Below are positions 3,918 through 23,132 of a DNA stretch of 43,902 nucleotides, one piece after another; position 1 is the stretch's first letter, and each line of letters opens with the position of its first letter. The DNA is from Synechococcales cyanobacterium. Its GTDB lineage: Bacteria > Cyanobacteriota > Cyanobacteriia > Cyanobacteriales > Chamaesiphonaceae. Both the position numbers and the translations under genes were made by a program. The notes beneath the pieces are model-generated. The model saw only the letters and a program-made list of their open reading frames with translations. It was not told where the DNA came from and searched no databases. The DNA lies in contig JAYUSV010000358.1 in assembly GCA_043755495.1 (NCBI GenBank), positions 1-43,902 on the forward strand, given 5' to 3'.

Positions 3918-6900
3918 CTAAGATTTCACTTTGACCTTGAATTTAATAGATCCATAAGCTCCGCCCAAAATCGGATTGCTACTATTAGCGGCATCCACAA
4001 CTACTGTATTAGTTGATTGATCGGCAGTGGTGTTACTTACCAAGTTGCAGTCGGTGGGACTGGTGCTAGAGTATTCTCCTCGATCATCTCCAGATATATT
4101 AGTGAGATATTGGCTAGTGCTGCCATTAGGGCTAAGCAAGATACCTTTGGTAGTATTACTACTGTTAAAATCCGGGACAAACTCGAGATTTTTGTTAAGG
4201 GCATCACAGATTTTGGCTTGGCCGATGCGGTTTTCACCACTGTTTAGGTAATAGATAGCGTATTCAATTTCATCACCAGGGCGTACTTGGCCGGGGTCGA
4301 TCGCCCCTAGCAGATAGCTGTTAGGCCAACCTGGATCGTTATCTTTGCTAGAGCCAGATTCATGGATATAGCTACTGTAATCTGTCCTCAATCCAGTAGC
4401 AGCAGAAGTAATAGCCGTGATGCGTTTCACCAAAATCAAGTTGGCTTTACTGCTAGGGATAGCACTAAATTCGGAGGTGTTACCATTGCTATCGGTGGCA
4501 GTGGCAGTGATATTGGTGGCGGTGGTTAAGCCCAAAGTGCCAGCGTTACTAAAAGTACAAGGATTGGTGCTGTTGCCAAAAATACCGTTGGCATCGGTGG
4601 TACAAGCGCCGAGATAGATTTTACCTTCGCCGTGGGGTTTAGATCTGCTATCGCCTGCCACGACTTCACCATTTTGGTCGGCGGGGCTGTTATCGGCAAT
4701 AAAAAATTCTAGGGTGAGATTGCCAAAAGTGTTGTTGCCGGCAGGATTATTGCCCACATAGCCTTTGGTGGTGAGATTACCACTGTTGATGGTGGCCAAG
4801 GTAATTAGCGGATAATCCAAATCTTGGTTGCTGATGGTGGTAGATATGGTGCCGTTATTGGGGGTGATGCCATTAGCAGTATTACCCAAGTCGATGCCCA
4901 CGCCCACATTGCCGAAAATAGAGTTTTGGGTGATTTTATTTTTCTGTTTACCTGCTTCGATCGCAATGCCGTAGCTACCCAAAGAATTACTCACTACATT
5001 TCCTGAGATAGTAACGGCAGTCTGTTGAGAATTAATGCCTCGGCGGTTTTGGTTTAAGATGTTTTTGTCGATTTTAATGCCCTGTAAATCATTAGTGCCA
5101 CTGGCTTGGAGTAAAATGCCGAAACCACTGGCATTACTAGCTCCATTGCGCAAAATAGAGTTGTTTTGCACCAAGAAATTACTACTAGTGCCGCTGACGG
5201 CGGGGCGAATAGCGATGCCAGAGTCGGCTTGGGAGTCGGTTAATAAGTTACGGGTGATGCTGATGTTGCCAATAGTGCTGGGGAAAAGTTCGATCGCGCT
5301 ATGTTGGCCAGCAGTGCCCGTGACATTTCCCGGCTGCTTGATTTCGTTTTCACGAATAACTAATCCCGATAGGTCAATAGCTGATCTGCCACCTAATATG
5401 CCGCGCTCACTGGTAAAACCAATGATGTTATTGGTAATAGTGGCATTGTTAGATCCATTAATCACAATGCCAGACTGGGATTGATTAACAGTGGGTGCTG
5501 TGAAGTTATTGGCTGTAAAGCCGATCGCATTTTGTGTGACTATAGGATTTGCAGCTTGCAGTAGAATATCACCTCGGTTGTTGCCAACTGTGCCAAACCC
5601 ATGAATAGCAATGCCTTGGATGGTGGCATTGGCTCCATCTACAGTGATGCCATGAATGACACTACCACTATTAATGAGTTCTACTTCGGGAGCATTGAGC
5701 TTAGCTAAAGATAGGTTGTCTACCCCGACATTGCCACCCCTGCCCAGAGTTAAACTATTGGTATTTCCGATATTATTAGTTTGAGTCCGACCATCGATCG
5801 AAGTATCAGCATCAGTGATTCTCAACGTTGTACCTAATTTGATAACCGCTACTCCGGCAGTATTCAACTGATTAATGACTCCGGTTCTCAGTCCTGCCGG
5901 AACTGGTAAACTTGCTGGCAAGGGAATCATGAAAATGGAGACTTCTTTGCCTGCCGGTTGTCCGACTTGGACTAAACCATTGTTAGTAAAGGCATTGCTG
6001 TTGATCACGAATTGGCGCAGTGAACCCTGTCCAGTGTCTCGGGTATTGACAATCGTATCAAAATTGAAACCAAAATCTAGACCATTAATATTAGCAGTAC
6101 CTACAGTTACTGGTGTCAATGACAACACTTCACTCTGGGTGATGGCGTTGAGCGCCGCTAGGGTCTGGGTGCCAGTATTTACGGCTGGGTCACTGTTTTC
6201 AGGCTTTTCTCCACCTACTCGATCGACGATGGCTACCGCAGCTCCACTAGTACCATCGGTGCGAAATGTCTGCACTGGTAATAAAGTATCTGTCGGTAGG
6301 GAGGCGGTGAGGTTACGACTAGAAACAACAGTTCTATTCACTACTCTAATTTTAAAATTACCAGAGCCAACAGTGAAACTGTATTTACCACTAGCATCGG
6401 TAGTGGTGGTGGCTACGAAGCTACCAAGAGAGTCGTATAGTTCTACAACTACTCCCGAACGGACAATAGTGCCAGTAGTGCTTAATGGCCGACCAGCACC
6501 GCCGCCATAGTTAGGATCTTCAAAAACCGTACCAGATATTTTGGGGTCGATCGGCAGCGCAATTACCCTAACATCTTCGCCGCTGTTGGCGATCGAATCA
6601 TAACTGGTCGTAATGGTACCGCTAGGAGTGAGCCGTTTCGGATCAAAGTAAGTGGCAGTAACTGGATTATTGTAAGTTCCAGGGGCGATCGTGTTATTAG
6701 ATAATGCCTGAAAGGTAATTTCAACCTTTTTATTAGTAGGAATTGAAAAAGTCCCCCAGTTGGCAGTAGTACTACCAACTGTCGGGCTCACCGGATTAGT
6801 GCGAGTAACCCCAGTATCCATATTTACAGAAATACTCGCATCAAAGGTAAAACCACTGGGAAGCACGTCTTGAATATTTACATCAGTAGCCGTCGTTCTA

Positions 6901-9242: not shown

Positions 9243-12200
9243 TTAATTGACTCTGGTACGGAAACGCATGAAACCGGCAGATTTTTCGGTAAGGGTACTA
9301 TTGATGGGGTTAACTATCGTACCTAAATCTACTACTACAGCGCCATTAGTATTGGTGTAGATTGGGTCTGCCGGAGATTTCCGGCAGGCGTTAGGCAGGG
9401 TGATTCCGGGTGGATAGTAGCGAGCTTTATCGCTATCGGTGAGATTGGTATAAGCCAGTGGCTGGTCGTTGATCTGAGCTACTATGCCTCGATCGGCTCC
9501 GATGTTACCACCTGCTGCTGATGGCACTGCTGCTGTCCCAATCCACTGGGCGATCGAAGGCACGAAGACTTGTTTATCAGGTATCAAATCACAAATACTG
9601 ACGTTGTTAGCTACGCCTTCGCCATTAGACAAGAAATAGATGGTGTACTCTACCATGTCACCCGGTCTGACGTTACCGCCATCGGTACCGCCAACTAGAA
9701 AGTTAGCAAGATCTGGCCATTGATTGGTATCGGGTGGAATAATTGCTGGTACGGTCAGGGTGTTGTCGTCGTAGGGGTTGCTAGGTTCATCATAGTAGTT
9801 AGATAGGTTCTGGCCATTTAAGGTAGAAGTAGAACCATTAATGTTGGTGATTCGTTTTACTAGTAGTACGCCAGGAGCATTTAGTGGTGTGCTACTAAAT
9901 TCGGAGGTGTCACCATTCAGGGTAGCGGTGGCTGTAATAGCAACTGCATCGGTGATGCTGACAGAGAAATCACAGCTAAAAGTGCTGTCGGCTAAGGCAA
10001 GGCAGTTGCCTATATAAGTACGACCTTCACCATGAGATTTATTTTTGCCATCACCCAGTAACACTTCACCACTTTGGTTGGCAGGGCTATTGTCGGCAAC
10101 AAAAAATTCTAGCTTGGCTCCAGCGAAGGCGCTACTGCCATTTGGCTGGTTGCCTAGGTAGCCTTTGACTGTTAATGTACCACTACTAATCCGTGAAGAG
10201 GTAATTACGGGGTAGTCCAGACCAATGTTAGGAATAGCTGGAGCAGTACTACCATTGTTGGCTGTCACTCCATCGCCTAATAACCAACTGCGAGGGTCAA
10301 TATCAATGCCTAAGCCGCTGTTCCCATAAATGCTATTTTCGGAAATAGTGTTTTGGATCGGTGTAATTGAAGTGGTTGCTGGTAAAACACTGCTACTAGC
10401 GCTGAGTAAAATCCCTGCTCCAGCATAGTTGGTGCCAGTGCTGACGGGTGTAGTGCCGTGGATGATATTACGGAGAATTGTGTTGCCGATTGCATTATTA
10501 TATAGACCAATCCCGGCTGTAGATGAACCTTCGATCGTGTTGTTTTTAATTTGATTGCCAGAAGTGGGAGCAACCAAGGTACTTACTAGCTCAATGCCTT
10601 TGCCACTATCTAAGGTATTACTACTCACCCCTCGTGTATTGGCAATCAGGTTGTTTTCCACCAAAACATTGGAGGCGCTCCATAACGCTACGCTGTCGCC
10701 TTCGGCTGATTTTTGGGGGCTATTGGGTGCTGCATTAGGGCCGTTAGATTGATATTCGTTGCCAGTGATTTTGGAGCCATTGGCACCAGCGCCATACAAA
10801 ATTGTACCGTAACCATTGTAGGCAATGAAGTTATTTTTGATTTCGCAGGCGGCAAAGCAAATGGTGCCATAGCGTTGGTTTTGTAAGGATGCTCCCGGAT
10901 CAGAGCCATCAGCGAAAGTACCAATGAGGTTTTGCTCAATAATCGCTGCCCCCGCTGGTGAGACGTTGCTGCCATTACTGCTGCCGACTCTAACAGCACC
11001 GCTATCACCACCGGCAGCAGTGGAGTAGTTACCCTTAGTTCCATAGACTGCAACGCCTTTAAGAATGGCGAAGTCAGCGTTGAGGGTAACGGCATATTGA
11101 TCAGCGTTGGTGGAATCGGTGAGATTGCGACCATCAATGACAATTTCTGGTCGATCGGTCTTAGCCACAGCTTGGTTGCTAATGCCTACCCCCACACCAC
11201 TACCAACTTGGCCAGCATTAGAGTTGCCAATATTGGTGGTTTGGGTAAAGCCGCTAATTGTTGTATTGCTATCAGTGACTGCATCTAGTGGTGATGTTAA
11301 AGTAATGACCGCCGCCCCATTGTTATTAGCAGTACCTGCAACTTGGTTGAGCAGACCAGTTCGTTGGCCAGCATTGCTGCTGCCATCAGGAATCATAAAA
11401 ATACTAACTTCTTTACCAGCAGTTTGTCCAACTTGAGTTAATCCGGTATTGGGAAGAGCGTTGCTGTTGAGAATAAACTGGCGCAGGGAACCTTGACCAG
11501 AGTCATTGGTATTGACGATCGAGTCAAAATTATAGCCAAAGTCTAGGCCACTAATAGCAGCCGTATTTACCTGAACCTTAGTCAGAGACTGAATGTAGTT
11601 ACCTGTTGCTACTGTGCCACCAGCCGTAGTGAACTTTGCAGTTACTGGGTCAAGGATAGCCCCAGCACCAGCAATACCAGCATCTAATTGATTTGGTGTT
11701 TCACCACCAACCTTATTAATTACCGCAGATGGTAGACTAGTGGCGGCACTTGCATCGGTCAGAAAAGTTTGGACAGGTACTAAGCCCGTAGCAGTAGTTG
11801 AGCGGGAGGAAACAACTGTTTTGTTAACTACCCGCACATAGAAATCACCTACTGGCACGCCAGGGAAAGTGTAGCTGCCACCGCTACTTGTTGTAGTTAA
11901 TCGAACAAATTTACCCGTACTGTCATAAATCTCTACGGTTGCTCCATCCACACCAATACCGCCAGAGGCCGTTTTGCTGCGACCTGCACCACCACCATAA
12001 TTTACATCATCAAACACGTTGCCAGAGATATCTTTACCTAGGACTAATGCCGAACCGATCGCGCTGGCTTCACGGATACCGTTGGCTGGAGCACCAATGA
12101 CTTCTTGACTACTCGATGGGGTTCCGGCTGTAGCTGGGTCTCCGTTGTCTATGGTGTAGACATCTTGGCTGTTGTTATTTATGAATGACTGGTTTTGCAG

Positions 12201-12941
12201 TCTATTTTGAGGAGTTATAGTAGAAGCTGGATCTATCGGACTATTACCAAGCAGCACTGTAATATTTGTGCCTGCGCTAGCCGTAATAGTCACCGGTACT
12301 CTTACTTTAATAGTGCCACCAGCATTTACTGAGCCACCGTTAGCTCCTGCTGTACTGCCTAATAAGACACCAGTGCTGTTAGTGCCAGCAGCAAAAGCTG
12401 TAGGTACATTTACGGGTGCAGGATTGCTGCCCACACCATCGAATACCGAGCTGCCGTAGCCAATAATTTGCAACTGACCGACTGTACCCCCGCCGGTAAC
12501 AGTGGCTGTGCTTGGAATCACAAATTGGGTGGGGTCATTACCGACGTTGGTAATAGTGAAGTCGAAGTAAACCACGTCGCCAGTGTGAATGCCGGGAGCA
12601 TTTTGGTAAGGTCCTGCTCCGGCGACTCCAGCGGGAGCATCTACCGCAATTTCTGATCCAATATTAATCCCGGCTACTTCGGCGACGGTGAGGGTGACAA
12701 TGTTAGATGTTACATCTTGCACTGCATTAGTTAAGTCATCGCCGTCTGTAAAAGTACCTGTGGCTTGGTTGTCGATCGTGGTACCAGCGACTGGAGGAGC
12801 CGCCAGCAGGGGCAAGATATACAGAGAGTTCCCAATTGTGGCTAAACCCAAGATCACTAACAATTTTGCCCAGGGACTGGGGCGAAGAGTAGTATTTTTT
12901 GAACGAGCGAGATTGTTAGTGGTTGGGTAAGGTTTCAACAT
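9243..12941 (-). CDS. Giant secreted beta-rich surface protein, paralogue B (1232 aa): shared N-module, SdrD-B-like, CSLREA-like motif, parallel beta-helix, GNTSEFS-type module, shared C-terminal domain
   Basis: ATG start at 12941. Signal-like LLVILGLATIGNSLYILPLLAAPP. N-module IDNQATGTFTDGDD...SNIVTLTVAEVAGI...VYFDFTITNVGNDPTQF (aa 54-300). ISGNVFDDVNYGGGAGRS; QGSLRQFILNSNA; beta-helix repeats (IKNNFI, ITGNEY, VENNLI, IKNNTI, ILRNII, ISENSIYGNSGLGIDI); ITATATLNGDTSEFS. CTD at nt 9246-9881. Confidence 0.88.
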   Translation of the reverse strand: MLKPYPTTNNLARSKNTTLRPSPWAKLLVILGLATIGNSLYILPLLAAPPVAGTTIDNQATGTFTDGDDLTNAVQDVTSNIVTLTVAEVAGINIGSEIAVDAPAGVAGAGPYQNAPGIHTGDVVYFDFTITNVGNDPTQFVIPSTATVTGGGTVGQLQIIGYGSSVFDGVGSNPAPVNVPTAFAAGTNSTGVLLGSTAGANGGSVNAGGTIKVRVPVTITASAGTNITVLLGNSPIDPASTITPQNRLQNQSFINNNSQDVYTIDNGDPATAGTPSSSQEVIGAPANGIREASAIGSALVLGKDISGNVFDDVNYGGGAGRSKTASGGIGVDGATVEIYDSTGKFVRLTTTSSGGSYTFPGVPVGDFYVRVVNKTVVSSRSTTATGLVPVQTFLTDASAATSLPSAVINKVGGETPNQLDAGIAGAGAILDPVTAKFTTAGGTVATGNYIQSLTKVQVNTAAISGLDFGYNFDSIVNTNDSGQGSLRQFILNSNALPNTGLTQVGQTAGKEVSIFMIPDGSSNAGQRTGLLNQVAGTANNNGAAVITLTSPLDAVTDSNTTISGFTQTTNIGNSNAGQVGSGVGVGISNQAVAKTDRPEIVIDGRNLTDSTNADQYAVTLNADFAILKGVAVYGTKGNYSTAAGGDSGAVRVGSSNGSNVSPAGAAIIEQNLIGTFADGSDPGASLQNQRYGTICFAACEIKNNFIAYNGYGTILYGAGANGSKITGNEYQSNGPNAAPNSPQKSAEGDSVALWSASNVLVENNLIANTRGVSSNTLDSGKGIELVSTLVAPTSGNQIKNNTIEGSSTAGIGLYNNAIGNTILRNIIHGTTPVSTGTNYAGAGILLSASSSVLPATTSITPIQNTISENSIYGNSGLGIDIDPRSWLLGDGVTANNGSTAPAIPNIGLDYPVITSSRISSGTLTVKGYLGNQPNGSSAFAGAKLEFFVADNSPANQSGEVLLGDGKNKSHGEGRTYIGNCLALADSTFSCDFSVSITDAVAITATATLNGDTSEFSSTPLNAPGVLLVKRITNINGSTSTLNGQNLSNYYDEPSNPYDDNTLTVPAIIPPDTNQWPDLANFLVGGTDGGNVRPGDMVEYTIYFLSNGEGVANNVSICDLIPDKQVFVPSIAQWIGTAAVPSAAGGNIGADRGIVAQINDQPLAYTNLTDSDKARYYPPGITLPNACRKSPADPIYTNTNGAVVVDLGTIVNPINSTLTEKSAGFMRFRTRVN
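9246..9881 (-). other. Shared C-terminal domain (CTD), copy in paralogue B (aa 1021-1232)
   Basis: GVLLVKRITNI...NQWPDLANF...VRPGDMVEYTIYFLSNGEGVANNVSICD...LAYTNLT...NACR...GAVVVDLGT...GFMRFRTRVN-stop. Confidence 0.8.
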
Positions 12942-13099: not shown

Positions 13100-16000
13100 C
13101 TACTGCCGTATTTTTACCTTGAATTTAATGTAGCCCCGTTCTTGTCTGTTCAATGGATTGCTGTTGCTAGCAATATCTGCCACAACGACGTTGTCAGACA
13201 AATTATTAGTGGTGTTGCTTGCTGTATTACAACCTGTCGGCAAGGTGGTGTTGCTAGAAAAAAAGCCATTGTCGGTATCGGTACTAGTATTGGTAAGATA
13301 GGTGGTAGTATTGGTATAGCTAATGGAAGGGACATAATCAGGAATAGCTTCTTTAACCAACTGGATGCCTTGTGTTGTGGTAGTTACCGCACTAAATTGA
13401 GGCTGAAAGATCAAGTCGGCATTGAGTCGATCGCATACACGAGCCTGACTAATGCGGTTGTCGCCAGCATTTAAATAGTACATCGTATACTCTACTTCAT
13501 CACCGGGCTTAGCGCTAACTCCATTGACTTCGCCTCTAATATAGCTATTGCCAGCATCATTCCAGCCGGGATGCTCGTCTAAGGTAGTACTAGAATCGTT
13601 TCTAAAACTATTGAATGTAGTAATAGCTCCAGTGGTTCCGTCCTTAATAGCAGTGATCCGTTTAGCCAAAACTAAGTTGGCTCGATCGTTTGGTATGGCA
13701 CTGAACTCAGAAGTGTTGCCAGCGCTATCGGTAGCAGTTGCCGTAATATTGTTGGCATCGGTTAAACCTCTAGCTCCGGCATTTGAAAACTCGCAGTTAA
13801 ATTGACTATTTGCATTCGTCAAGCATGAACCAATATAGGTTCGGCCTTCTCCATGAGGCTTTGCTTGGCCATCATTAATGATCACTTCACCATCTTGATC
13901 GGCGGGACTATTATCAGCAATAAAAAATTCTAAATTGGCACCAACAAATTTTGAGCTGCTCAGTTCGCTACCAACAAAGCCTTTTACGGTAAGCTTTCCT
14001 CCGGCCAGTACAGAATAAGTAATTACAGGATAATCCATCCCCTTATTGCCATATTCTTCCGCAGAACTAGTATCATCAACAATGCCATTATTGGCGGTAA
14101 GTCCTTGGTTGATATAAGACCCTGGATTTGGACTTAAATCTATACCAACATTAGTATTAGCATAAATACTGTTCTTAGTGATTCTGATTCCGGTAGCTCC
14201 TTTCTCAATTAATATGCCCACACCCGAGTTGTTGGCTATAATGTTTTGTTTGATAGTATGATCATGCTCTGCCGTATTAATTAAGATACCTGCGTTGTTA
14301 TTGCGTTCAATAGTATTTTGTAAAACAGTCGTATTAGAGCCAGTACTATTGCCATCCATCAAAACTCCCCACCCACAATTGTATAAATAGTTGTTTTGGA
14401 TGAGGGTACTACTCGCACTACTTGAATTTGTGCCCGCACTAATATGAATGCAAGCACCAGTAACAGCGCTGCCATCGGTCTTTCCAGACGTAATTTCGTT
14501 ATTTGTAATAATAATATTGGTTAGGTTATTAACATTTGCGGCATTAATCACAATAGGTTCATTTGTTGCCAGAAGCAAATTGTGATCAACTAGTGTGTTG
14601 CTACCACTAATTTGCAATGATTTGCCATAGCCCCCATTCGCTTGAACTTGGGTGGCTGAAATTGTGCCAGCAAGAATATTTTCGATGCGGCTATCGGTAC
14701 TGGTACTTGTCGTCTGAATCGCTGCTGAGGCATTACCAGTGAAACTAATGCTATTGATGTACGTGCCTCGTCCACTAGTGAAAATGGCAATATCATTGAT
14801 AGTTTTAAGCTCTATTTCTGGACCATTGATTCTAGTTAAGATGTTGCCACCTATACCGATCGACGTAGTAGTATTGCCAAAGGCAGTGTTGTTAGTATTC
14901 CCTTGATTAATAGTTTGAGTACGGCCATCGATCGCTGTAAAAGAATCTCTAATAATTAAACGCCCACCACTGGGAGAAGTTCCCAAGCTAATTAGGGCAA
15001 CACCATTGGCTGGTAGAGAGTTGGCTGGAATCATAAAAATGCTAGTTTCTACACCGAGCGCGGGATCGATTGCCGTAGTACCTGGTGCTGGGGAAGGGTT
15101 AGCAATCTGATCTAAGCCGGTATTGCTCAGGGCGTTGCTATTTGCCACAAATTGTCGCAGCGAACCTTGCCCAGTACTATTAGTATTAACAATGGTATCA
15201 AAGTTATAGCCAAAGTCGATACCAGTCACAGCAGCACTGCTTACTTGCACTGTCGTTATAGACTGTGCTTCTTGGGTACTAGTATCTAGAGTACTCAAAT
15301 TAGCATTTGTAGTATTAGATGGAGCATCAATCTCTCTGGGTTTTTCACCTCCTACTTTATCTGTCACATCAGTAGCTGTCCCTGTAGAGGCATTGGTACG
15401 AAAGGTTTGAACGGGAAGTAATCCCACGGTAGAAGCTGGATTTGGCCGCGAGGAAATGATCGTATTATTAACTACCCGAACTCTATAATCATCAGCTACA
15501 ATGCCACTGCTAATATTACTAGAGTCAAATTTATACACGCCATTAATACTAGTGAGAGTAAAGCCTTGCAAAATGCCCGCAGCGTTGTATAGCTCGACTC
15601 GAGCATTTCGCAACGGTACAGCGCTAGATGTACTTAGGGGGCGACCAGCTCCCCCACCATAATTAATATCTTCAAAAACTGTGCCAGCAATTGAGCCTGG
15701 GGGAGCTAATACTGCTGTGTTAAAACCAGCGCTGGCTTCTTGGCGGTGATTAGTAGCATCACCATTAATGGGCATACCGGCAGCTTCTCCAGGAGCACCG
15801 TCAGTGTTGTCAACAGTATATACATCGTTGGTACTGGCAACATAGGGAGTATTATTTGCAGATGGTGAACTGGCAGTATTACCTAGCGTAACAACCACAA
15901 AAGAATTAGCGGCAGCGGTAACAGTGACTGGCACCCGCACAATGATTGCGGCATCAACTGGAATAGAGCCTAGGATAGTATTGCCATCCAAAGTAGGGTC

Positions 16001-16516
16001 AGAGAGAGCACCAGTGTTGACGGCTGCGGTAATATTAATGGGCGTGGTTAAGTCGATTTTGGTACCAGTGCTAGTGATGTAGCTTACTACTTGCAATATG
16101 CCTGCTGTACCGCCAGTGATATTAGATGGTGCTATGGGCAAGAAAAATTTAGTGGGGTCATTACCAATGTTTTTAATTTGAAAATCAAAATTAGTAACTG
16201 TGCCGCTGATAGGACTGGGCGTATTGAAGGGCGTAATCAAAATTCCAGCCACTTCAGCTACGGTAATTGTAACAATGTTAGATACGACAGCTTCTTGACC
16301 AGCACTGCTGTCATCACCATCAGTAAATGTTCCTGTTGCTTGGTTGTTAATTATCACATTTGGTGCGGTAGGTGCGGCCAAAAGTGGTGCGACTTGAACA
16401 GAACTGTTTCCAGCAAATACGCCCAAGAAAATGATCAGATGAGTTAAATATTTATGGCATTTTCTAATATCCTTTTTTACAGAAGAACTTTTGGTAAAAT
16501 GTTGATATTTAATCAT
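13100..16516 (-). CDS. Giant secreted beta-rich surface protein, paralogue C (1138 aa): same architecture as B and D
   Basis: ATG start at 16516. Signal-like LTHLIIFLGVFAGNSSVQVAPLLAAP. N-module IINNQATGTFTDGDD...SNIVTITVAEVAGI...TNFDFQIKNIGNDPTKFFLP (aa 53-270, nt 15707-16360). IAGTVFEDINYGGGAGRPL; QGSLRQFVANSNA; beta-helix repeats (VDHNLL, ITNNEI, IQNNYL, LQNTIERNNNAGILI, IKQNIIANNSGVGILI, ITKNSIYANTNVGIDL); ITATATDSAGNTSEFS. CTD at nt 13103-13687. Confidence 0.88.
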   Translation of the reverse strand: MIKYQHFTKSSSVKKDIRKCHKYLTHLIIFLGVFAGNSSVQVAPLLAAPTAPNVIINNQATGTFTDGDDSSAGQEAVVSNIVTITVAEVAGILITPFNTPSPISGTVTNFDFQIKNIGNDPTKFFLPIAPSNITGGTAGILQVVSYITSTGTKIDLTTPINITAAVNTGALSDPTLDGNTILGSIPVDAAIIVRVPVTVTAAANSFVVVTLGNTASSPSANNTPYVASTNDVYTVDNTDGAPGEAAGMPINGDATNHRQEASAGFNTAVLAPPGSIAGTVFEDINYGGGAGRPLSTSSAVPLRNARVELYNAAGILQGFTLTSINGVYKFDSSNISSGIVADDYRVRVVNNTIISSRPNPASTVGLLPVQTFRTNASTGTATDVTDKVGGEKPREIDAPSNTTNANLSTLDTSTQEAQSITTVQVSSAAVTGIDFGYNFDTIVNTNSTGQGSLRQFVANSNALSNTGLDQIANPSPAPGTTAIDPALGVETSIFMIPANSLPANGVALISLGTSPSGGRLIIRDSFTAIDGRTQTINQGNTNNTAFGNTTTSIGIGGNILTRINGPEIELKTINDIAIFTSGRGTYINSISFTGNASAAIQTTSTSTDSRIENILAGTISATQVQANGGYGKSLQISGSNTLVDHNLLLATNEPIVINAANVNNLTNIIITNNEITSGKTDGSAVTGACIHISAGTNSSSASSTLIQNNYLYNCGWGVLMDGNSTGSNTTVLQNTIERNNNAGILINTAEHDHTIKQNIIANNSGVGILIEKGATGIRITKNSIYANTNVGIDLSPNPGSYINQGLTANNGIVDDTSSAEEYGNKGMDYPVITYSVLAGGKLTVKGFVGSELSSSKFVGANLEFFIADNSPADQDGEVIINDGQAKPHGEGRTYIGSCLTNANSQFNCEFSNAGARGLTDANNITATATDSAGNTSEFSAIPNDRANLVLAKRITAIKDGTTGAITTFNSFRNDSSTTLDEHPGWNDAGNSYIRGEVNGVSAKPGDEVEYTMYYLNAGDNRISQARVCDRLNADLIFQPQFSAVTTTTQGIQLVKEAIPDYVPSISYTNTTTYLTNTSTDTDNGFFSSNTTLPTGCNTASNTTNNLSDNVVVADIASNSNPLNRQERGYIKFKVKIRQ
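13103..13687 (-). other. Shared C-terminal domain (CTD), copy in paralogue C (last 195 aa)
   Basis: ANLVLAKRITAI...HPGWNDAGNSY...AKPGDEVEYTMYYLNAGDNRISQARVCD...TTYLTN...TGCN...DNVVVADIA...GYIKFKVKIRQ-stop. Confidence 0.8.
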
Positions 16517-16888: not shown

Positions 16889-16921
16889 AACAAAAAAGGT
16901 GCCTCTGTAAACAGGGCACCT
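16889..16921 (-). terminator. Rho-independent terminator downstream of paralogue D
   Basis: The minus strand reads AGGTGCCCTGTTTACAGAGGCACC-TTTTTTGTTGG. It has a 7-bp GC-rich outer stem (AGGTGCC/GGCACCT) plus 3-4 inner pairs, followed by a U-tract, 17 nt after the stop codon of the 1186-aa gene. Confidence 0.65.
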
Positions 16922-16937
16922 AATGGATATCATTTTT

Positions 16938-19900
16938 CTATTTTTTCACTTTTACTTTGAAGCGAATGTAACCGTAAGAAGTGGCGGGCGCACCAGCGGA
17001 AGTAGAACCCATGAGGGGACTGCTGGTAGTGCCCACATCTACAACTACTACATCATTCGATAAATTAGTCCCGGAGTTGGCAGCTAAGTTACAGCTAGTG
17101 GCAAGACTAGGAGTCGTTAATCGTCCAGCATCTGCATCCGCGTCATTATTGGTGAGATATTGAGGAAGAGCACTAGTACCAGGAACCAAAGCAATGCCTT
17201 TATTTAAGGTGGCTGAGTTAGTGATGTCGAACTGAGTTTGAAAATCTAAGTTGGCATCTAGCTGGTCGCAGACACGGGCTTGGGTAGCTCTGTTTTCGCC
17301 ACTATTGAGGTAGTAGATGGTGTATTCTACTTCATCACCTGGTTTCACAGGTGAGGGAGTAATTTTGCCGACGGTATAGGTGTTGGTGCAGGCACCAGTG
17401 GAGCCAGTGGCAGTCGGCCAGTTACAGTTGTTGTCATCAGTTTTATTGGCAGATGTAGTATCATCGGTAAAGGCCGTGAAGTTAGTTACTGCATTGGTAT
17501 CAACATCTTTGATAGCAGTAATTCGCTTGACCAAGAGCACTTGGGCTTTTACTGGAGGTATGGAACTAAACTCGGAGGTGTTGCCAGCAGCGTCTGTAGC
17601 TGTGGCTGTAATGTTTCTAGCATTAGTTAAACTCAGGGTAGCTGTGTTGGTAAATTCACAGGCTGGGCTAATACCAAAGAGGCTGTTGGCATCGGTAGTA
17701 CAGGTGCCAATATAGGTCTTGCCTTCGCCATGAGGTCTTGATCGAGTATCGCCCAAAATAACTTCACCATTGTTGTTACCATCATCAGCCGCTACGAATA
17801 GCTCGACAACTTTATTGGTAAAAAGGGGATTGCCTGCGGAGCTGATTCCTACATAACCTTTGACCGTAAGTGTACCAGCACTTAATGTTGATGAAGTAAT
17901 GATCGGGTAGTCCATACCAATATTGGCAGCCTGGGTGCCCGTATTACTGGTGTTAGTCGCACCATCGTTGCCAGTTACTCCTGCCTGAAAAATGCTGCCA
18001 TTATAGATGCCTAGGTCAATTCCTAACTTGACGTTGCCAAACAAGCTGTTTTGAGAGATTTTGTTTCGCAAGCCGGAGTTGCTGTCAAGCTTCAAGATTA
18101 CTATGCCAGACCCGTAATTCCCGGCACCGTCTACCCGGCTATCGGTAATGATATTTTTCTCGATCGTGTCGTCGATACCCGCAGACATAATGCCTGCTTG
18201 GTAGTTGCCACTGAAGGTGTTATTTGTCACTTCGACACTAGAGCCAGTACTGATTTGGAGTCCTTTACCTTGAGAGAGAGCGCTGGCGACGCTAGTAGCA
18301 CCATGGATTAAGTTTTGATAAATCTTGATATTCTTGGCATTGATTTCTGTTTTTAGTTGATCGGCATATACGCCGCTGGCATCTGTGCCGATGTTTTTGG
18401 GGCCATTGGCAAAAACTTCATTGTTGTAAAAGTTAATTACGGCATTACTAATCACACCAGTGGAATTACCAAAGGTACCAGCATCGCCTAAGTAAGCAAA
18501 GTAGTTGTTGAAAATATCGGCGGCTCCGGTAGCTTGGAAGGCATAGCCCACGTAGGCATTGGCTGCTGGACTGCTGCCATTGGCAAGCGTGCCGCCCAGT
18601 AGTTGGGTCAGTGTGGCTTTGCCGCTATCGGTGACTGCGGGATTGATCCAAATTGCGCCATTGTTCATTCCTCCTAACCCTGCCTGAATGCGGTATCCAT
18701 AGAAGGAAAAGCCAGCCAGAGTGGTGTTTTGTCCTTGCACGACGATCGCGTTGCTACCACCGCCATTGGGGTTGAAGTTGCCGTTGACGATCGGCATGGT
18801 GCTAAAATCTAGAGCAATTTCGGGTTTGGGGATAACAGAGAGGGCTAGGTTATCGGTGCCGACTGTGCCGCCGGTGCCGACTGTGCCGGAGTTGGTATCG
18901 AAGACGTTTTGGGTTTGGGTGCGGCCATCGATCGATGTATTACTATCTGTAATGATCAGTTGGCTACTGAGGGCAATGACGGCTGTATTGTTGTTGCCGC
19001 CAGTGCCATTTATACCGGTGCTATAGCTACCCGATAGTCCGGCTCGGACTGAGCCGTCAGAAATCATAAAGATCGAGACTTCTTGGCCAGCAGTTTGACC
19101 TTCTTGAGCTAAATTAGTATTTGTTAGGGCGTTGCTATTGGTGACAAATTGACGGAGTGAACCTTGGCCAGCGTTACTAGTGTTGACGATTGTGTCAAAG
19201 TTATAGCCAAAATCAATCCCGGTAACGTTAGTAGTACTAACTTGCACAACCGTCAGTGACTGGGCTTCCTGAGTAGGCGTATCAAGGGTGGCAAGATTAG
19301 CGTTAGTGGTATTCGCCGAGGCATCAACTTCGGCTGGTTTCTCACCCCCCACATGGTCGGTGACATCAATAATCGACCCAGTGGTTGCGTCAGTGCGGAA
19401 GGTTTGCACTGGTACCAAAGTATTGACATAGCCCAGACGAGAGGATGTAACAGTACTGTTTACCACCCGAATTTTGTAGTTTCCGGCGATTACTCCCCCA
19501 ATGACGTTGGTGGCATCAAATTTGTACGCCCCAGCGCTATCAGTTGTGGTAAAGCCTTTGAATGCCCCGGTAGAATCATAGATCTCAACTATGGCATTGG
19601 CGCGACCTGATGTGGTGGGGGTATTGAGAGGACGACCTGCACCACCGCCGTAGTTGGGGTCTTCAAACACAGTCCCAGAAATAAATTTGGCTGTACTAAT
19701 TGCATTTACTGATTGGATGGCACTGGCTTCGCGCACGCCGTTAATCGGAGTACCGACCGCTTCGCCACTAACTGTTGATCCGACAGGATTATCGACAGTG
19801 TACACATCATTGGTACCAACAGTGTAGGTAATATTACTATCCCCAACAGTGGGTGTATCGCCTAAAATGACACTGACCGGACTACCCGTAGCAGCGGTGA

Positions 19901-20498
19901 CATTTACCTTGACCCGAACGACGATCGCAGCATCAGCCGGAATAGAACCCAATGTAATATTTCCCCCTAGCGTCACATCACTCAGGGTATTAGTATCACC
20001 TGCCGTACTCACGTCGATAGGAGTAGCTAGCACAACTGGCGTAGTACTCCCAGCCGGAACATAGCTAACAATTTGCAAGACTCCTGATTGAGCACCACCG
20101 ATAATTTTGGCAGTATCGAGAGTACTGGGTAAGAAGAATTTAGTCGGATCGTTACCAACGTTTTTGATGGTAAAATCGAAGTTAGCGATGGTTCCAGGAA
20201 TAGCATTAGCTATATTGCTATTAATGATCGAAATCCCGGCAACTTCAGCAACTGTGACTTTGACGACATCTGAGGCAACTGTTTTAGACAAATTATCAGC
20301 AGTATCGACAAATGAACCGGTCGCCTGGTTTTCGATCACAGTCCCAGGGGTAGGGCTAGCCGCAGTAGCCATCATGGTATTAAGTAGACCCCCACCAATA
20401 AACAACGATGCTAATAGTAAAGAGTGATAGCGCAAAAGCGGAAATTTCAGAGCGACAGAGGAAGCAAGACGTGGGGGGGTAAACATGGCAAGGTACAA
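16938..20498 (-). CDS. Giant secreted beta-rich surface protein, paralogue D (1186 aa): same architecture as B and C
   Basis: The ORF opens with TTG at 20498; ATG at 20486 (MFTPPRLASS...) is likelier. N-module VIENQATGSFVD...VVKVTVAEVAGI...ANFDFTIKNVGNDPTKFFLP (aa 52-265, nt 19704-20345). ISGTVFEDPNYGGGAGRPL; QGSLRQFVTNSNA; beta-helix repeats (IYQNLI, VTNNTFSGNYQAGIM, IEKNII, ISQNSLFGNVKLGIDL); ITATATDAAGNTSEFS. CTD at nt 16941-17555. Confidence 0.88.
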   Translation of the reverse strand: MYLAMFTPPRLASSVALKFPLLRYHSLLLASLFIGGGLLNTMMATAASPTPGTVIENQATGSFVDTADNLSKTVASDVVKVTVAEVAGISIINSNIANAIPGTIANFDFTIKNVGNDPTKFFLPSTLDTAKIIGGAQSGVLQIVSYVPAGSTTPVVLATPIDVSTAGDTNTLSDVTLGGNITLGSIPADAAIVVRVKVNVTAATGSPVSVILGDTPTVGDSNITYTVGTNDVYTVDNPVGSTVSGEAVGTPINGVREASAIQSVNAISTAKFISGTVFEDPNYGGGAGRPLNTPTTSGRANAIVEIYDSTGAFKGFTTTDSAGAYKFDATNVIGGVIAGNYKIRVVNSTVTSSRLGYVNTLVPVQTFRTDATTGSIIDVTDHVGGEKPAEVDASANTTNANLATLDTPTQEAQSLTVVQVSTTNVTGIDFGYNFDTIVNTSNAGQGSLRQFVTNSNALTNTNLAQEGQTAGQEVSIFMISDGSVRAGLSGSYSTGINGTGGNNNTAVIALSSQLIITDSNTSIDGRTQTQNVFDTNSGTVGTGGTVGTDNLALSVIPKPEIALDFSTMPIVNGNFNPNGGGSNAIVVQGQNTTLAGFSFYGYRIQAGLGGMNNGAIWINPAVTDSGKATLTQLLGGTLANGSSPAANAYVGYAFQATGAADIFNNYFAYLGDAGTFGNSTGVISNAVINFYNNEVFANGPKNIGTDASGVYADQLKTEINAKNIKIYQNLIHGATSVASALSQGKGLQISTGSSVEVTNNTFSGNYQAGIMSAGIDDTIEKNIITDSRVDGAGNYGSGIVILKLDSNSGLRNKISQNSLFGNVKLGIDLGIYNGSIFQAGVTGNDGATNTSNTGTQAANIGMDYPIITSSTLSAGTLTVKGYVGISSAGNPLFTNKVVELFVAADDGNNNGEVILGDTRSRPHGEGKTYIGTCTTDANSLFGISPACEFTNTATLSLTNARNITATATDAAGNTSEFSSIPPVKAQVLLVKRITAIKDVDTNAVTNFTAFTDDTTSANKTDDNNCNWPTATGSTGACTNTYTVGKITPSPVKPGDEVEYTIYYLNSGENRATQARVCDQLDANLDFQTQFDITNSATLNKGIALVPGTSALPQYLTNNDADADAGRLTTPSLATSCNLAANSGTNLSNDVVVVDVGTTSSPLMGSTSAGAPATSYGYIRFKVKVKK
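16941..17555 (-). other. Shared C-terminal domain (CTD), copy in paralogue D (last 205 aa)
   Basis: QVLLVKRITAI...NCNWPTAT...VKPGDEVEYTIYYLNSGENRATQARVCD...PQYLTN...TSCN...NDVVVVDVG...GYIRFKVKVKK-stop. Confidence 0.8.
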
Positions 20499-20558
20499 AA
20501 AGATAATGATAGTAATGGAGCAATTGCAAGGAAATCAGAGAATTAAGACCAGTTATTA

Positions 20559-23132
20559 TTAGGGGTTTACCTTGGTTTTAAATCTGAAATAACCATAAGA
20601 ATTAGTCGGCACCCCAGGAGCCGTACCACCAGGCAAGGCCAGTAGATTTTGCTGACCACTACTACCAGTGCCGGTAACATCAACAATTACCGTTCCATTA
20701 TTTGTCCCTGTAATACTGGGAATAGGACAGCCCACAATAGTACCTGTACTACTATTTAACTCCGCCCGATCGACTGAAGTCAAACTGGCTTTGGTGAGAT
20801 ATTGCACAGCATTAGCACCCAATTTATATTCAATATCTTTGCCAACTCCATAAGCATCTGCCAAAAACTGTTGCGCACCCACTATTTGATCACAGAATCT
20901 CACTGTATTGGCATCAGAACCCCGAGCATTCAAAAAATAAACAGTGTATTCCACCACATCTTTAGGGTTGATCAATCCAGCATTATAAGAGCCCACCAAA
21001 TAGCCACTCGGCCAATTTAGCCCTGGATCATCACTGGTGGTTGCTGGGTTGTTTAACACTTGGTCGAGAGCAAAACTTGTGTCATTAGGGTTTTTTAGTC
21101 GATCGCTATTAATTTCTGTAATGCGTTTGATGAGCTTAATATCTGCGGGTATTGCAACAGGTGGTGTAATTAATATCTGATAATCTTCCACTTCCCCATC
21201 AGCAGCAATTCCACTAGGGGTACTGGCTGTGACTGTGGCATCACTGGTGAAGCGAAAACGAGCGAAGGTATTTCCAGCAGCACCGGCAGTAATTCCTGTC
21301 CAGTTTAGATCGCCTGAAAGTGTATCACTCACAACCGCAGCGCTAGTATATTCGCCAACATCAAACGTACCGTTCTTATTGAAATCGATCCAGGCATGCA
21401 GTGTACCCGTTCCTGTTGCGGTGATATTTGCAGCAGGAATACTATAGCTGGTGCCTCCAGCAGTCAAAGTAGGAAAGCTACTGATGCTGTCGTCGTCGGC
21501 TCCATCACCACTTGCGTTAGCGTTGGCGATCGACCCTGTTTCACTATCGATCACGGCTCCTAACTTTATACCAGAAATAACTCCATGTATGGCTTGGCTA
21601 TAAGCATTTGTACCCGTCCCACTTGGTGCTGTTCCAGTAATAGGGGCATCTCCATAATCGCCAAGAACTACTACCAAAGTGCCAGTAGTACTACCCGGGT
21701 TATTCCCTGCCGTGGTCTTTAATTCTCCAGCCGCAATAGTATTAATAAAAGTACCCGTATTACTAGCCGTGACATTGACCGTCACGGTACAACCACCAGC
21801 CGGAACTTTTAATCCATTCAACAAGCTAATAGAGTTGCTGTTTGCCACGGCAGTTACTTTGTTGTTGTTGGCTGTATCAGCTAGGCACGTACCACCCAAC
21901 CCATTAGGAGATCTAACTGCTAACCCTGTTTGAAAGTTGTCAACTAATGTTGATATTAAATAAATAGGTACCTGGTTGGTATTGCCCAATGTCAATGTCA
22001 ACGTGCTGTTTGCCGGTATTCCAACAACATTATTTGGGTTAAATGCTTTGGTAATGGTTGGTAAATCTGGCACAGGTGAGCCACAAGCACCTAGGTCACC
22101 TGTCCCCGTTGCAGTTGTTAATTGAGTTGCGGAATTTGTAGCGGTGTTTAATTCATAAGTACCTAAGCTGCTGCTGATATAGAATTTGCCAGTCGCTGGA
22201 TCGATCGCCAATCCATTTGCTGCGGAACCGCCAAGACCGGTAATATTGCTAGCGACCACTGCGACAGCAGTCGCTGTAGTTCCACTAATTGTCAGAGTAT
22301 ACAGTCGAGAGGTGTAGGTAAGCACACCGCCAGTATTAATGGTGCTGGTGTCTCCTAATATATAGATAAGACCATCTGTACCGATCGCTATATCCCCATT
22401 TGTATTGCCACCAGTTACAGTAGTATTATTCGCAATAGTCCCTGGCGGTGGTGGCCCCCCACCAGGAATACCACTAATGCTGATCGTAACGCCGCTCTGG
22501 CCACCAGTGGTAGGATCGACTTCAATCAGCTTTTTATCTGAGTAATAAACATATAATTTACCACTGGCATTAAACGTAGCACCAATGACTGCACTTCCGG
22601 TCGTAATAGAGACAGGAATAGTTCCGGAAAGAGTAGTTTGTACATTGGTGTTGACATTGAAAACAACGACCTTGCCAGTAGTCCGGTTGACGAAATAAAG
22701 ATTACCGGTAGATGGTTGAACTGCGATCGCATTAATATTGTTACCACCTGTGTAATTAACAAGGGGTACATAAGAATTAGTGATGCTATTGAAGTAACCA
22801 ATTACACTGCTGGTTCCAGATGCTACCACTGCACCTGAAGCATCAATTGTCACCCCAGATCGACTAGAATACGTCCCAACGCAAGTGCTGCCAGCCCAAC
22901 TGCGCTGCGGATTGAAAGTAATACCAATTCCAATACTAGTACCGATCATTAGTAAAGATGTATACAGAGAAAGACTGATGCCAGGAATACCCTTTCTCAT
23001 AGATTTATCGATCACTTTTGAATTCTTGAACAAAGATGGCAATGCCTGAACTTGCTTAGTAAAAGCTGTTCGATCGCGGAGCACATCATTAGAAGAGTCG
23101 AGTTTATGCAGAGATGACAGAAAAGATTTCAT
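20559..23132 (-). CDS. Secreted surface protein, paralogue E (857 aa): beta-propeller-like region, DUF11/CARDB-like Ig domain, GEVED domain, shared C-terminal domain
   Basis: ATG start at 23132. An internal ATG at 23000 gives a classical signal peptide (MRKGIPGISLSLYTSLLMIGTSIGIGITFNPQRSWA). Propeller-like repeats: GNLYFVN, GKLYVYY, DGLIYILG, GKFYISS (aa about 85-340). Ig-like domain LPTITKAFNPNNV...STLTLTLGNTN...GGCTVTVNVTASNTG. GEVED domain (DYGDAP...WIDFNKNGTFD...ARFRF...DGEVEDY). CTD at nt 20562-21152. Only 60 nt separate its stop from the start of paralogue D. Confidence 0.85.
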   Translation of the reverse strand: MKSFLSSLHKLDSSNDVLRDRTAFTKQVQALPSLFKNSKVIDKSMRKGIPGISLSLYTSLLMIGTSIGIGITFNPQRSWAGSTCVGTYSSRSGVTIDASGAVVASGTSSVIGYFNSITNSYVPLVNYTGGNNINAIAVQPSTGNLYFVNRTTGKVVVFNVNTNVQTTLSGTIPVSITTGSAVIGATFNASGKLYVYYSDKKLIEVDPTTGGQSGVTISISGIPGGGPPPPGTIANNTTVTGGNTNGDIAIGTDGLIYILGDTSTINTGGVLTYTSRLYTLTISGTTATAVAVVASNITGLGGSAANGLAIDPATGKFYISSSLGTYELNTATNSATQLTTATGTGDLGACGSPVPDLPTITKAFNPNNVVGIPANSTLTLTLGNTNQVPIYLISTLVDNFQTGLAVRSPNGLGGTCLADTANNNKVTAVANSNSISLLNGLKVPAGGCTVTVNVTASNTGTFINTIAAGELKTTAGNNPGSTTGTLVVVLGDYGDAPITGTAPSGTGTNAYSQAIHGVISGIKLGAVIDSETGSIANANASGDGADDDSISSFPTLTAGGTSYSIPAANITATGTGTLHAWIDFNKNGTFDVGEYTSAAVVSDTLSGDLNWTGITAGAAGNTFARFRFTSDATVTASTPSGIAADGEVEDYQILITPPVAIPADIKLIKRITEINSDRLKNPNDTSFALDQVLNNPATTSDDPGLNWPSGYLVGSYNAGLINPKDVVEYTVYFLNARGSDANTVRFCDQIVGAQQFLADAYGVGKDIEYKLGANAVQYLTKASLTSVDRAELNSSTGTIVGCPIPSITGTNNGTVIVDVTGTGSSGQQNLLALPGGTAPGVPTNSYGYFRFKTKVNP
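20562..21152 (-). other. Shared C-terminal domain (CTD), copy in paralogue E (last 197 aa)
   Basis: DIKLIKRITEI...GLNWPSGY...INPKDVVEYTVYFLNARGSDANTVRFCD...VQYLTK...VGCP...GTVIVDVTG...GYFRFKTKVNP-stop. Confidence 0.8.
21168..21662 (-). other. GEVED domain within paralogue E (aa 491-655)
   Basis: GDYGDAP...YSQAIHGV...LGAVIDSE...ASGDGADDD...LHAWIDFNKNGTFDVGEY...NTFARFRFTSD...GIAADGEVEDYQI. This matches the motif pattern of the Pfam GEVED family as I remember it. Confidence 0.6.

Follow-up and report, generated by a model that had tools for sequence, protein, structure and literature searches.

Giant exoproteins of a cyanobacterial gene array end in a truncated CLIPPER domain whose missing strands may be supplied by an N-terminal motif of partner proteins

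We analysed a 43,902-nucleotide (nt) stretch of DNA from a Synechococcales cyanobacterium (contig JAYUSV010000358.1, hereafter called the window), which carries five consecutive minus-strand open reading frames (ORFs), A to E, encoding giant exoproteins. The original prediction for this DNA was that all five end in one alignable module, which we confirm: the five C-terminal domains (CTDs, 176-212 amino acids, aa) align over 243 columns, 26 of them invariant, with 32-50% identity to the first sequence. A second element, a short N-terminal motif (N-motif) on B, C and D, was absent from that prediction. An ORF check of the window placed the five genes and their features as follows, where acceptor and donor denote the roles that we predict for the CTD and the N-motif, respectively.

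3918..9044, minus strand: gene A, 1708 aa; signal-like N-terminus and acceptor CTD, donor N-motif absent according to the N-motif hidden Markov model (HMM); passenger with two canonical CLIPPER/DUF11 domains, an AgmC_N-like Gly-rich region, SdrD_B and a beta-helix.
3921..4448, minus strand: CTD of A; Lys1540 codon at 4425-4427; AlphaFold 2 (AF2) model of 3921-4466 with a predicted local distance difference test score (pLDDT) of 92.
9243..12941, minus strand: gene B, 1232 aa; signal-like N-terminus, donor N-motif, SdrD_B, beta-helix and acceptor CTD.
12660..12806, minus strand: donor N-motif of B, residues 46-94; Asn58 codon at 12768-12770.
9246..9881, minus strand: CTD of B; Lys1029 codon at 9855-9857.
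13100..16516, minus strand: gene C, 1138 aa; signal-like N-terminus, donor N-motif, beta-helix passenger and acceptor CTD.
16232..16381, minus strand: donor N-motif of C, residues 46-95; Asn58 codon at 16343-16345.
13103..13687, minus strand: CTD of C; Lys952 codon at 13661-13663.
16938..20498, minus strand: gene D, 1186 aa; signal-like N-terminus, donor N-motif and acceptor CTD; passenger with CLIPPER-like, SdrD_B-like and beta-helix-like regions.
20223..20363, minus strand: donor N-motif of D, residues 46-92, read as orphan CLIPPER strands 8-9 ('TVIENQATGSF...DVVKVTVAEV'); Asn57 codon at 20328-20330.
16941..17555, minus strand: CTD of D; Lys991 codon at 17526-17528.
20559..23132, minus strand: gene E, 857 aa; signal-like N-terminus, DUF7933 plus GEVED and acceptor CTD; E 1.9e-68 with the CTD profile and no match with the N-motif HMM.
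20562..21152, minus strand: CTD of E, strands 1-7; Lys codon at 21126-21128, Cys-Asp at residues 747-748, second Cys at residue 802.

The regions upstream of the CTD differ between the five proteins, with SdrD_B-like and beta-helix/NosD regions in B, C and D. In line with the original prediction, a hydrophobic signal-like stretch was found at the N-terminus of all five, as judged by eye and by a crude hydrophobicity rule. The CTD landmarks that it had listed are all there: LVKRIT, W(P/N), PGD-x-VEY-x-IY(Y/F)L, CD, a second Cys, VVV(D/A) and a terminal G-x-I-K/R-F-K/R-x-K/R-V. Across 106 family members, the near-invariant positions are K14, R15, T17, W47, G54, D65, E68, Y69, Y72, C87, D88, C140, G172 and F176. 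The Cys pair singled out by the prediction is real, since C87 and C140 are kept in 106 of 106 CTDs; a disulfide between them is a conjecture. An insertion of 35-55 aa follows strand 1 and contains the conserved residues D42, W47, P48, L52 and G54. In the CTD of D, the variable insertion holds an extra pair of Cys (residues 1025 and 1037, window approximately 17388-17426, 'NNCNWPTATGSTGAC'), which is additional to the family-wide C87/C140 and also occurs in several relatives from other genomes. In the passenger of A, a Gly-rich region (residues 217-645) matches NCBIfam gliding_AgmC_N (E 5.5e-39, 134 bits against a cut-off of 275); AgmC is an adventurous-gliding protein of Myxococcus, and the same Gly-rich region directly precedes the CTD in the homologue fragment P0001.

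In the five window proteins and in the homologue sequences inspected, the polypeptide ends straight after the last beta-strand (...F-K/R-x-K/R-V-K/N). These C-termini form amphipathic beta-strands, with K, N, Q, S or P as the last residue and no hydrophobic helix, which bears out the earlier statement that PEP-CTERM, GlyGly-CTERM and LPXTG signals are missing; the tripartite anchor of the PEP-CTERM/GlyGly-CTERM type (motif, transmembrane helix and basic tail) is not present. An outer-membrane beta-signal was considered for the terminal strand and rejected, as its last residue is K or N and not aromatic.

A profile of the five CTDs matched 3,283 proteins of a representative library of 1.84 billion entries at E<=1e-3, and 619 of these reached E<=1e-30. 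The matches are of two types: full-length ones, which always lie at the protein end, and giant multi-repeat DUF11 proteins, which match over the core alone (profile positions approximately 55-110). When 265 fetched match proteins were re-scored locally for CTD position and copy number, the full-length match ended 0-7 residues from the C-terminus in 210 of 210, with one per protein and none internal. We also scanned one genome per species and obtained 335 confirmed sites; the 78 loci studied here represent the best 80 of these 335 by similarity to protein A, and they contain 126 CTD ORFs with the domain terminal in every one. The predicted obligatory position at the extreme C-terminus thus holds in both sets. 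As in the case of the window, the CTD genes form tandem same-strand arrays in 31 of the 78 loci. The loci come from Synechococcales metagenome-assembled genomes (the closest, with 83-88% identity), Chamaesiphon, Nostocales, Pleurocapsales, Oscillatoriales, Pseudanabaenaceae, Chroococcidiopsis and others, and gene E is also present on one other contig, of 5.6 kb. All but one of the named source genomes are cyanobacterial, and the named sources among the protein matches listed for a 176-aa query (<=371 aa; many contig-edge fragments) are all cyanobacteria. Contig L061 (CAZZZY010000029.1) is binned as 'uncultured Acetobacteraceae' and carries a complete operon of the cyanobacterial type (c6-c3-c2-c1-CTD, see below); it is probably a mis-binned cyanobacterial contig and not a non-cyanobacterial occurrence.

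We then examined the identity of the domain. With the CTDs alone, Pfam DUF11 (PF01345) matched four of the five, with a best E of 1.5e-4 and a score for the CTD of A of 20.6 bits against a cut-off of 24.6, and TIGR01451 gave a best E of 6.3e-7, with the CTD of B at 24.4 bits against a cut-off of 24 and the curated threshold mostly missed. The other Pfam/NCBIfam matches at E<=10 were DUF7619 (two of five) and DUF7927 (one of five). Hence, of the two outcomes envisaged for such a search by the original prediction, the generic DUF11-type match was found and the named sorting domain was not. DUF11 is called CLIPPER in newer Pfam releases. An hhalign comparison of the 106 CTDs with 95 canonical CLIPPER repeats, drawn from the giant multi-repeat DUF11 matches, gave a probability of 97.4% (E 4.5e-11), so that the DUF11-like core predicted for the module is upheld by these sub-threshold matches together with the profile alignment. 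The final CTD residue falls on column 97 of the 129 template columns, and the Asn strand and strand 9 are left without a counterpart.

In the CLIPPER structure 9IFR, nine strands form a CnaA-like sandwich, and Lys715 (strand 1) is joined to Asn806 by an intramolecular isopeptide bond for which Asp748 is the catalyst (10.1101/2025.04.25.650565 = PMC12617251). The canonical repeats, whose strand order ends with the W-strand, 'GTLTVTAVL', 'TTLTNTAVV' (Asn) and the last strand, have a K-to-D spacing of +34 and a K-to-N spacing of +90, in agreement with K715/D748/N806 of 9IFR (+33, +91). The CTD shares the PGD-x-V-x-YTI and x-D-x-(L/I)P motifs with CLIPPER, and it keeps both the isopeptide Lys (K14 of LVKRIT, strand 1) in 105 of 105 sequences and the catalytic Asp (D88 of CD, strand 3) in 106 of 106. 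The CTD is a truncated CLIPPER (DUF11) domain that comprises strands 1-7 and lacks the Asn strand (strand 8) and strand 9. Because its last residue lies at template column 97 of 129, its terminal amphipathic strand corresponds to the canonical strand 7, and the protein ends there since strands 8-9 are missing. The conservation noted earlier for the final strand is correct, but the sorting meaning attached to it is not supported, as this strand is strand 7 of CLIPPER. The CTD is homologous to CLIPPER and departs from its structural definition in two respects: it covers template columns 1-97 of 129 instead of a complete nine-strand sandwich in one chain segment, and the isopeptide triad appears to be split, with Lys and Asp in the CTD and Asn in the N-motif (76 of 81). 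Sequence searches with the CTD profile and with the canonical DUF11 domain of A returned no useful relative of solved structure, and 9IFR itself was unmatched.

Directly after the signal-like segment, proteins B, C and D begin with '..PGT-V-I-(D/E)-N-Q-A-T-G-(S/T)-F-x-D ... S-N-I-V-x-(L/V)-T-V-A-E-V'; for the family, the motif reads ..PGT-V-I-(D/E)-N-Q-A-T-G-(S/T)-(F/Y)-x-D ... S-N-x-V-x-V-T-V. An HMM built from this motif and then iterated gave 82 matches, and within the window it recognised B, C and D only, with none in A and E. The motif lies within the first 150 residues in 76 of the 82 matches, and its Asn is kept in 76 of 81. In hhalign, it was placed on columns 97-128 of the canonical CLIPPER template, with the motif Asn on the isopeptide Asn (E 0.0078). 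Because the CTD occupies columns 1-97 and the N-motif columns 97-128, the two tile one canonical domain without overlap. Hence, judging from the alignments, the strands missing from the CTD appear to exist as an orphan N-terminal motif on partner proteins.

Structure predictions were made for the CTD with and without the motif. With the 106-sequence alignment, AF2 modelled the CTD of A alone with a pLDDT of 92.1 and a predicted template modelling score (pTM) of 0.88; in Foldseek, this model gave no PDB match at E<=1e-3, the best being CBM3 and pilin fragments with a template modelling (TM) score of <=0.42. A chimera was made of the CTD of D and 40 residues of the mature N-terminus of D joined at its C-terminus in a single chain, a design that makes use of the natural 6-8 residues before the Asn strand, which equal in length the canonical loop that links strands 7 and 8. 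The alignment for this model consisted of three window-derived chimeras and natural homologues and was shallow over the motif part. The chimera was predicted with a pLDDT of 92.7 and a pTM of 0.90, and the added segment formed two strands (218-229 and 234-247) with a pLDDT of 87-94. In Foldseek, it had 74 PDB matches at E<=1e-3, compared to none for the CTD alone, led by CnaA-type sortase-pilin domains (S. sanguinis PilA/B/C, SpaD, BcpA) and Cna/ACE, and it matched CLIPPER 9IFR with E 2.1e-4 and a TM score of 0.62 normalised to the target. Such a set of 74 CnaA/CLIPPER matches is the outcome expected if the motif fills the vacant strand positions.

A domain scan of the window ORFs revealed no machinery gene among the neighbours, as the original prediction had also noted, and a candidate for the partner machinery that it expected was found in other genomes. 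Clustering of all ORFs of the 78 loci identified a conserved same-strand operon upstream of the CTD genes, made up of c6, c3, c2 and c1, with c4 in some loci:

c6, 857 aa in Anabaena variabilis, where the copy is complete (in the 78 loci, contig ends truncate most copies): N-motif, DUF7925 and, at its end, a divergent CTD-like sequence, '..TFTFQRKVN'.
c3, approximately 190 aa (for example, L018:1257-1829 and L079:7778-8320): small CLIPPER-like protein ending at strand 7, without the catalytic Asp.
c2, approximately 510 aa: N-motif, DUF11 and SdrD_B, CTD absent.
c1, approximately 1,240 aa: Ig plus beta-barrel protein.
c4, present in 18 loci: beta-helix and OmpA peptidoglycan-binding domain.

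Among the 56 loci with a full 10-kb upstream flank, c1 is present in 40, and it is followed by a same-strand CTD gene in 41 of 41 cases, with a median gap of 296 nt. It carries an Invasin_D3/Big_1 Ig domain (18 of 18) and is matched by the outer-membrane barrel families DUF2490 (15 of 18) and Porin_4 (4 of 18). Neither an usher nor a TonB-receptor family matched c1, and no PDB relative was found by sequence for c1 alone or for a c1 profile; the labels given to it at NCBI are 'TonB-dependent receptor' or 'Ig-like domain-containing protein'. A search starting from c1 recovered the locus of Anabaena (Trichormus) variabilis ATCC 29413 in the order c6-c3-c2-c1-CTD protein, with the CTD gene directly downstream. 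The small protein c3 has a signal peptide and a single CLIPPER-like body that ends in '..TYQTQVR', with Asn in place of the catalytic Asp and without an N-motif; it might cap donor strands non-covalently or act as their chaperone. The beta-helix of c4 is weakly similar to protein B of the window (E 0.004).

In three independent contigs of the Pseudanabaena type, the gene order is the same: the beta-helix-OmpA protein (c4), a head, a protein of 716-740 aa and a minimal subunit of 275 aa. The head is a large protein with a signal peptide and CTD but no N-motif, and the 716-740 aa protein consists of a signal peptide, N-motif, GEVED and CTD. By analogy, this order resembles the tip/adaptor/major-subunit logic of chaperone-usher operons, and the order E, D, C, B, A in the window looks alike. 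An ORF of approximately 195 aa with a weak match to the IS200-like Y1 transposase family (PF01797, 23.8 bits) recurs in 12 loci of different cyanobacterial orders (L012, L026, L030, L031, L037, L040, L047 at 5300-5887, L054, L056, L063 and L077, and on the opposite strand in L020). It usually lies between c1 or c4 and the CTD gene, or between CTD genes, and might mark a site of repeated insertion or represent a domesticated gene.

We propose, with a probability of roughly 55%, that the CTD is the acceptor of a split CLIPPER domain and that the proteins are joined head-to-tail by strand complementation, probably with an isopeptide lock. Once exported by Sec, one protein would insert its N-terminal donor strands into the C-terminal acceptor of another, which would rebuild a complete CLIPPER domain from two chains. 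The rebuilt domain would then probably lock by a self-catalysed intermolecular Lys-Asn isopeptide bond, like a natural SpyTag/SpyCatcher pair. The acceptor-only proteins (A and E here; approximately 75% of the family, in which the N-terminal heads vary widely) would be the fibre tips, the proteins with both donor and acceptor (B, C and D, the 716-740 aa adaptors and the 275-aa minimal subunits) the stalk subunits, and the donor-only c2 a chain terminator or anchor. A candidate for the outer-membrane assembly and anchoring platform is c1, with or without c4. The identity of the domain, its truncation, the complementary motif, the positions of both and the gene neighbourhoods are observed here, whereas we infer that complementation occurs in trans, that a covalent bond forms and what role c1 plays. 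The proposal would agree with the part of the original prediction that saw in the module a device for attachment or fibre assembly and not an ordinary stalk repeat.

The alternative that survives best, although we consider it unlikely, is that the CTD is a folded secretion or anchoring signal like the CTD of the type IX secretion system (T9SS), recognised and possibly removed by an outer-membrane machine, perhaps c1, with the subunits unjoined. A strictly C-terminal, single-copy domain on very diverse passengers is what such a tag would look like, as is its genetic linkage to a large outer-membrane barrel, with apparently many CTD genes per one barrel operon. However, no similarity to any known sorting CTD was found in sequence (Pfam, NCBIfam) or in fold (Foldseek), so that the T9SS-type tag favoured by the original prediction is not supported. 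It also leaves unexplained why the isopeptide Lys and Asp are kept in a fold without the Asn strand, and why a complementary N-terminal motif and minimal motif-plus-CTD proteins exist. The sorting tag and strand complementation are compatible ideas, as c1 could also recognise the CTD.

A clasp within one chain, where the N-motif folds back on its own CTD so that B, C and D are looped and the CTDs without a motif are open or non-functional, is more doubtful still. B, C and D do hold both parts, and AF2 docks the motif confidently in the single-chain chimera. However, of the 169 CTD proteins whose N-terminus appears complete, 42 carry an N-motif by HMM, 22 more by a loose pattern and 105 have none, so that 105-127 of them lack it, and their invariant Lys and Asp are still there behind very diverse heads with an ordinary signal peptide. 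Complementation between chains is favoured because most CTD proteins lack the N-motif and yet keep Lys and Asp. Furthermore, eight proteins of 260-280 aa (approximately 275 aa) consist of a signal peptide, the N-motif, a linker of 4-5 aa and the CTD, and nothing else. The mere 4-5 aa between strand 9 and strand 1 are the length of the normal junction between successive domains of a tandem array, where strands 8-9 belong to the preceding domain, and this resemblance again favours between-chain complementation. The one-chain clasp is also at odds with the existence of donor-only proteins, namely the operon protein c2, with an N-motif and no CTD. Equally improbable is that the CTD is a divergent last CLIPPER/Ig domain of the stalk that might bind sheath polysaccharide or lipopolysaccharide, with the N-motif as an unrelated conserved leader: the CBM3 and MG-domain matches of the CTD alone in Foldseek, the adjacent polysaccharide flippase gene and the conserved insertion loop (D42, W47, G54), which could be a ligand site, would suit it, but the fold matches are not significant (best E 8.6e-3, TM score <=0.42) and the exact tiling of a canonical repeat by CTD and N-motif, the chimera's 74 significant CnaA/CLIPPER matches and the lack of internal CTDs are left unexplained.

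Several points weigh against the proposed complementation between chains. The N-motif is short and its alignment to CLIPPER is weak by itself, and the chimera is a single-chain model, in which the motif part of the alignment comprised three sequences. By HMM, the motif is present in a minority of the CTD proteins (approximately 25%); for most heads, other genes must provide the donor. No c1 operon lies within 10 kb in the window or in its closest relatives (L001, L003, L004, L006 and L008). Ushers show no similarity to c1, and c2, c3, c4 and c6 matched no chaperone family. The OmpA domain of c4 points to the periplasm, so that a surface fibre and an envelope-spanning tether are both possible. 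The sample of loci is not independent, as it is biased to relatives of protein A and contains many related Nostocales. Lastly, CTD position 158 is Asn, Asp or Glu in 99 of 106 sequences and could in principle give an intramolecular bond. In the profile alignment, this position falls on the canonical strand-6 Trp, and a bond within the CTD between K14 and the Asp of 'VVVD', which is merely N/D/E-conserved there, was set aside as a minor alternative.

A wider proposal, which we put forward tentatively and hold to be less probable than split-domain complementation as such, is that cyanobacteria of most orders have an unrecognised surface fibre made of split CnaA/CLIPPER subunits. In such a fibre, the C-terminal catcher of one subunit would take the N-terminal tag of the next and a self-catalysed intermolecular Lys-Asn bond would seal the joint, a new barrel, c1, would assemble and anchor the fibre without a sortase, PapD-like chaperone or classical usher, and dozens of interchangeable giant heads per genome would share a common stalk. 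Should it be confirmed, it would be without precedent among diderm fibre systems in being built by covalent donor-strand exchange and lock, and it would provide the first natural split CnaA/CLIPPER isopeptide domain, a natural counterpart of SpyTag/SpyCatcher. Thousands of giant exoproteins of cyanobacteria that lack annotation would also gain a function, as would a conserved outer-membrane protein of 1,200 aa labelled 'TonB-dependent receptor' or 'hypothetical', and the question of how very large Sec-exported cyanobacterial proteins reach the surface would be answered in part. Provided that the biochemistry holds, the outcome would be a phylum-wide appendage together with a natural split-domain ligation pair, and the system could yield new orthogonal pairs for protein ligation. 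It is relevant to adhesion, gliding and symbiosis and to how sheaths and mats form, and it is tractable, being found in Anabaena variabilis ATCC 29413 and many Nostoc strains.

The remaining genes of the window are of other kinds. On the plus strand, the end of a nonribosomal peptide synthetase (NRPS) module lies at 59-1816 (C-terminal part of AMP-binding, peptidyl carrier protein and thioesterase; the ORF extends to 58 nt from the window start), beside a Wzx-like polysaccharide flippase gene (PF01943) at 1907-3343, and both diverge from the exoprotein array. The other neighbours encode a DUF456 protein, an Exo_endo_phos protein, a peroxiredoxin, a Uma2 nuclease, a P-type ATPase and a TRAP transporter, together with two genes with Fer4 and NADH/plastoquinone oxidoreductase chain 6 (Oxidored_q3) domains (NDH-type), and there is a tRNA-Pro (GGG) gene at 41535-41610 on the minus strand. 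The putative endonuclease of the Uma2 family (PF05685) lies near the array at 28026-28619 (minus strand), and PF05685 genes are also found immediately 3' of the minimal-subunit gene in two unrelated contigs (L082:10923-11666; L083:11048-11812 and 16808-17392); Uma2 genes are abundant in cyanobacteria and so their proximity to the arrays may be a coincidence. Among the ORFs of 172-408 aa without a Pfam family at E<=1e-3, three on the plus strand (34207-34761, 35195-35872 and 36252-36926) are adjacent, encode 184, 225 and 224 aa and might be paralogues; further ORFs without such a match are at 24633-25229, 26084-26602, 41664-42890 and 43368-43901.

We compared the system with known secretion and fibre systems. 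The T9SS CTD (type A, TIGR04183; type B, TIGR04131/PF13585) is likewise a folded C-terminal beta-sandwich on diverse secreted proteins. Neither TIGR04183/PF18962 nor TIGR04131/PF13585 appeared at E<=10 in the Pfam/NCBIfam scans of the five CTDs, no T9SS CTD was among the top Foldseek matches of the CTD alone or the chimera, and no T9SS machinery gene (PorU, PorV, SprA) was found in the window or the conserved operon, the only related match being that of c4 to PorE, which reflects a generic OmpA-domain resemblance and scores far below the cut-off. To our knowledge, T9SS is confined to Bacteroidota-related phyla. The CT pili of Microcystis were rejected as a counterpart, as their 12-kDa pilin is unrelated and has a unique fold. 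The sortase pilins (SpaD, BcpA, RrgB, S. sanguinis PilA/B/C) have CnaA-type Lys-Asn domains and covalently joined subunits, and SpaD, BcpA and PilA/B/C are among the best structural matches; they differ in that the bond between subunits is made by a sortase at LPXTG, whereas an LPXTG motif, transmembrane segment and basic tail are absent from the five proteins and the homologues inspected, and no sortase gene was seen in the window or operon.

Chaperone-usher pili (type 1, P and archaic) are also built from incomplete Ig-like subunits that are completed by the N-terminal extension of the next subunit, their tip adhesins have an acceptor pilin domain and no donor strand, and the tip, adaptor and major-subunit genes are clustered with an outer-membrane pore. 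Unlike in the system described here, a single strand is lacking, there is no covalent lock, and a PapD-like chaperone and a PF00577 usher are needed (c1 matched neither PF00577 nor the chaperone family PF00345). In the CTD system, two strands would be donated, and the acceptor forms the C-terminal end of multidomain proteins that reach 2,500 aa. The archaeal threads (Saci_0406) are formed by head-to-tail donor-strand complementation through N-terminal tails, with proposed sortase-free intermolecular isopeptide bonds (PMC9715654), but their fold is unrelated, the bond runs from the N-terminal alpha-amine to an Asn of subunit n+2, the host is a monoderm archaeon and the fibre is a small homopolymer. 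Similar in mechanism is BsaA of Clostridium perfringens, where donor-strand exchange is locked by a spontaneous Asn-Lys bond (N35-K74, with E56 catalytic; PMC11580942). As predicted here, an N-terminal strand bearing the Asn enters the sheet of the next subunit and bonds to a Lys with the help of an acidic catalyst in the acceptor. In contrast, BsaA and TasA have a TasA/camelysin-like fold, a Gram-positive host, secretion associated with SipW and type IV pili and small subunits that form homopolymers, without an outer-membrane barrel or giant heterologous heads. No Pfam match to TasA or Peptidase_M73 was found in the window proteins and no SipW-like gene was seen in the window or operon. Since the fold here, as modelled, is CnaA-like, the resemblance to BsaA/TasA would be one of mechanism only.

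The nearest relative by descent is CLIPPER/DUF11 itself, which has the homologous core, the same Lys in strand 1 and Asp in strand 3, and occurs in giant extracellular proteins with signal peptides. Canonical CLIPPER domains are complete with nine strands, usually stand as tandem internal repeats and form their Lys-Asn bond within one chain, whereas the CTD is single and always last, has the 35-55 aa insertion and the Cys pair, and ends at strand 7, with the Asn strand on the N-terminus of a partner. The survey of CLIPPER domains (Costa et al., PMC12617251) makes no mention of cyanobacteria or of split or intermolecular forms, and full-text searches of the literature on DUF11 or TIGR01451 in cyanobacteria gave no description of the CTD or the operon. 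In summary, fibres that are completed by donor strands and locked by isopeptide bonds are already known in other folds and organisms, and what would be new is the split form of CLIPPER.

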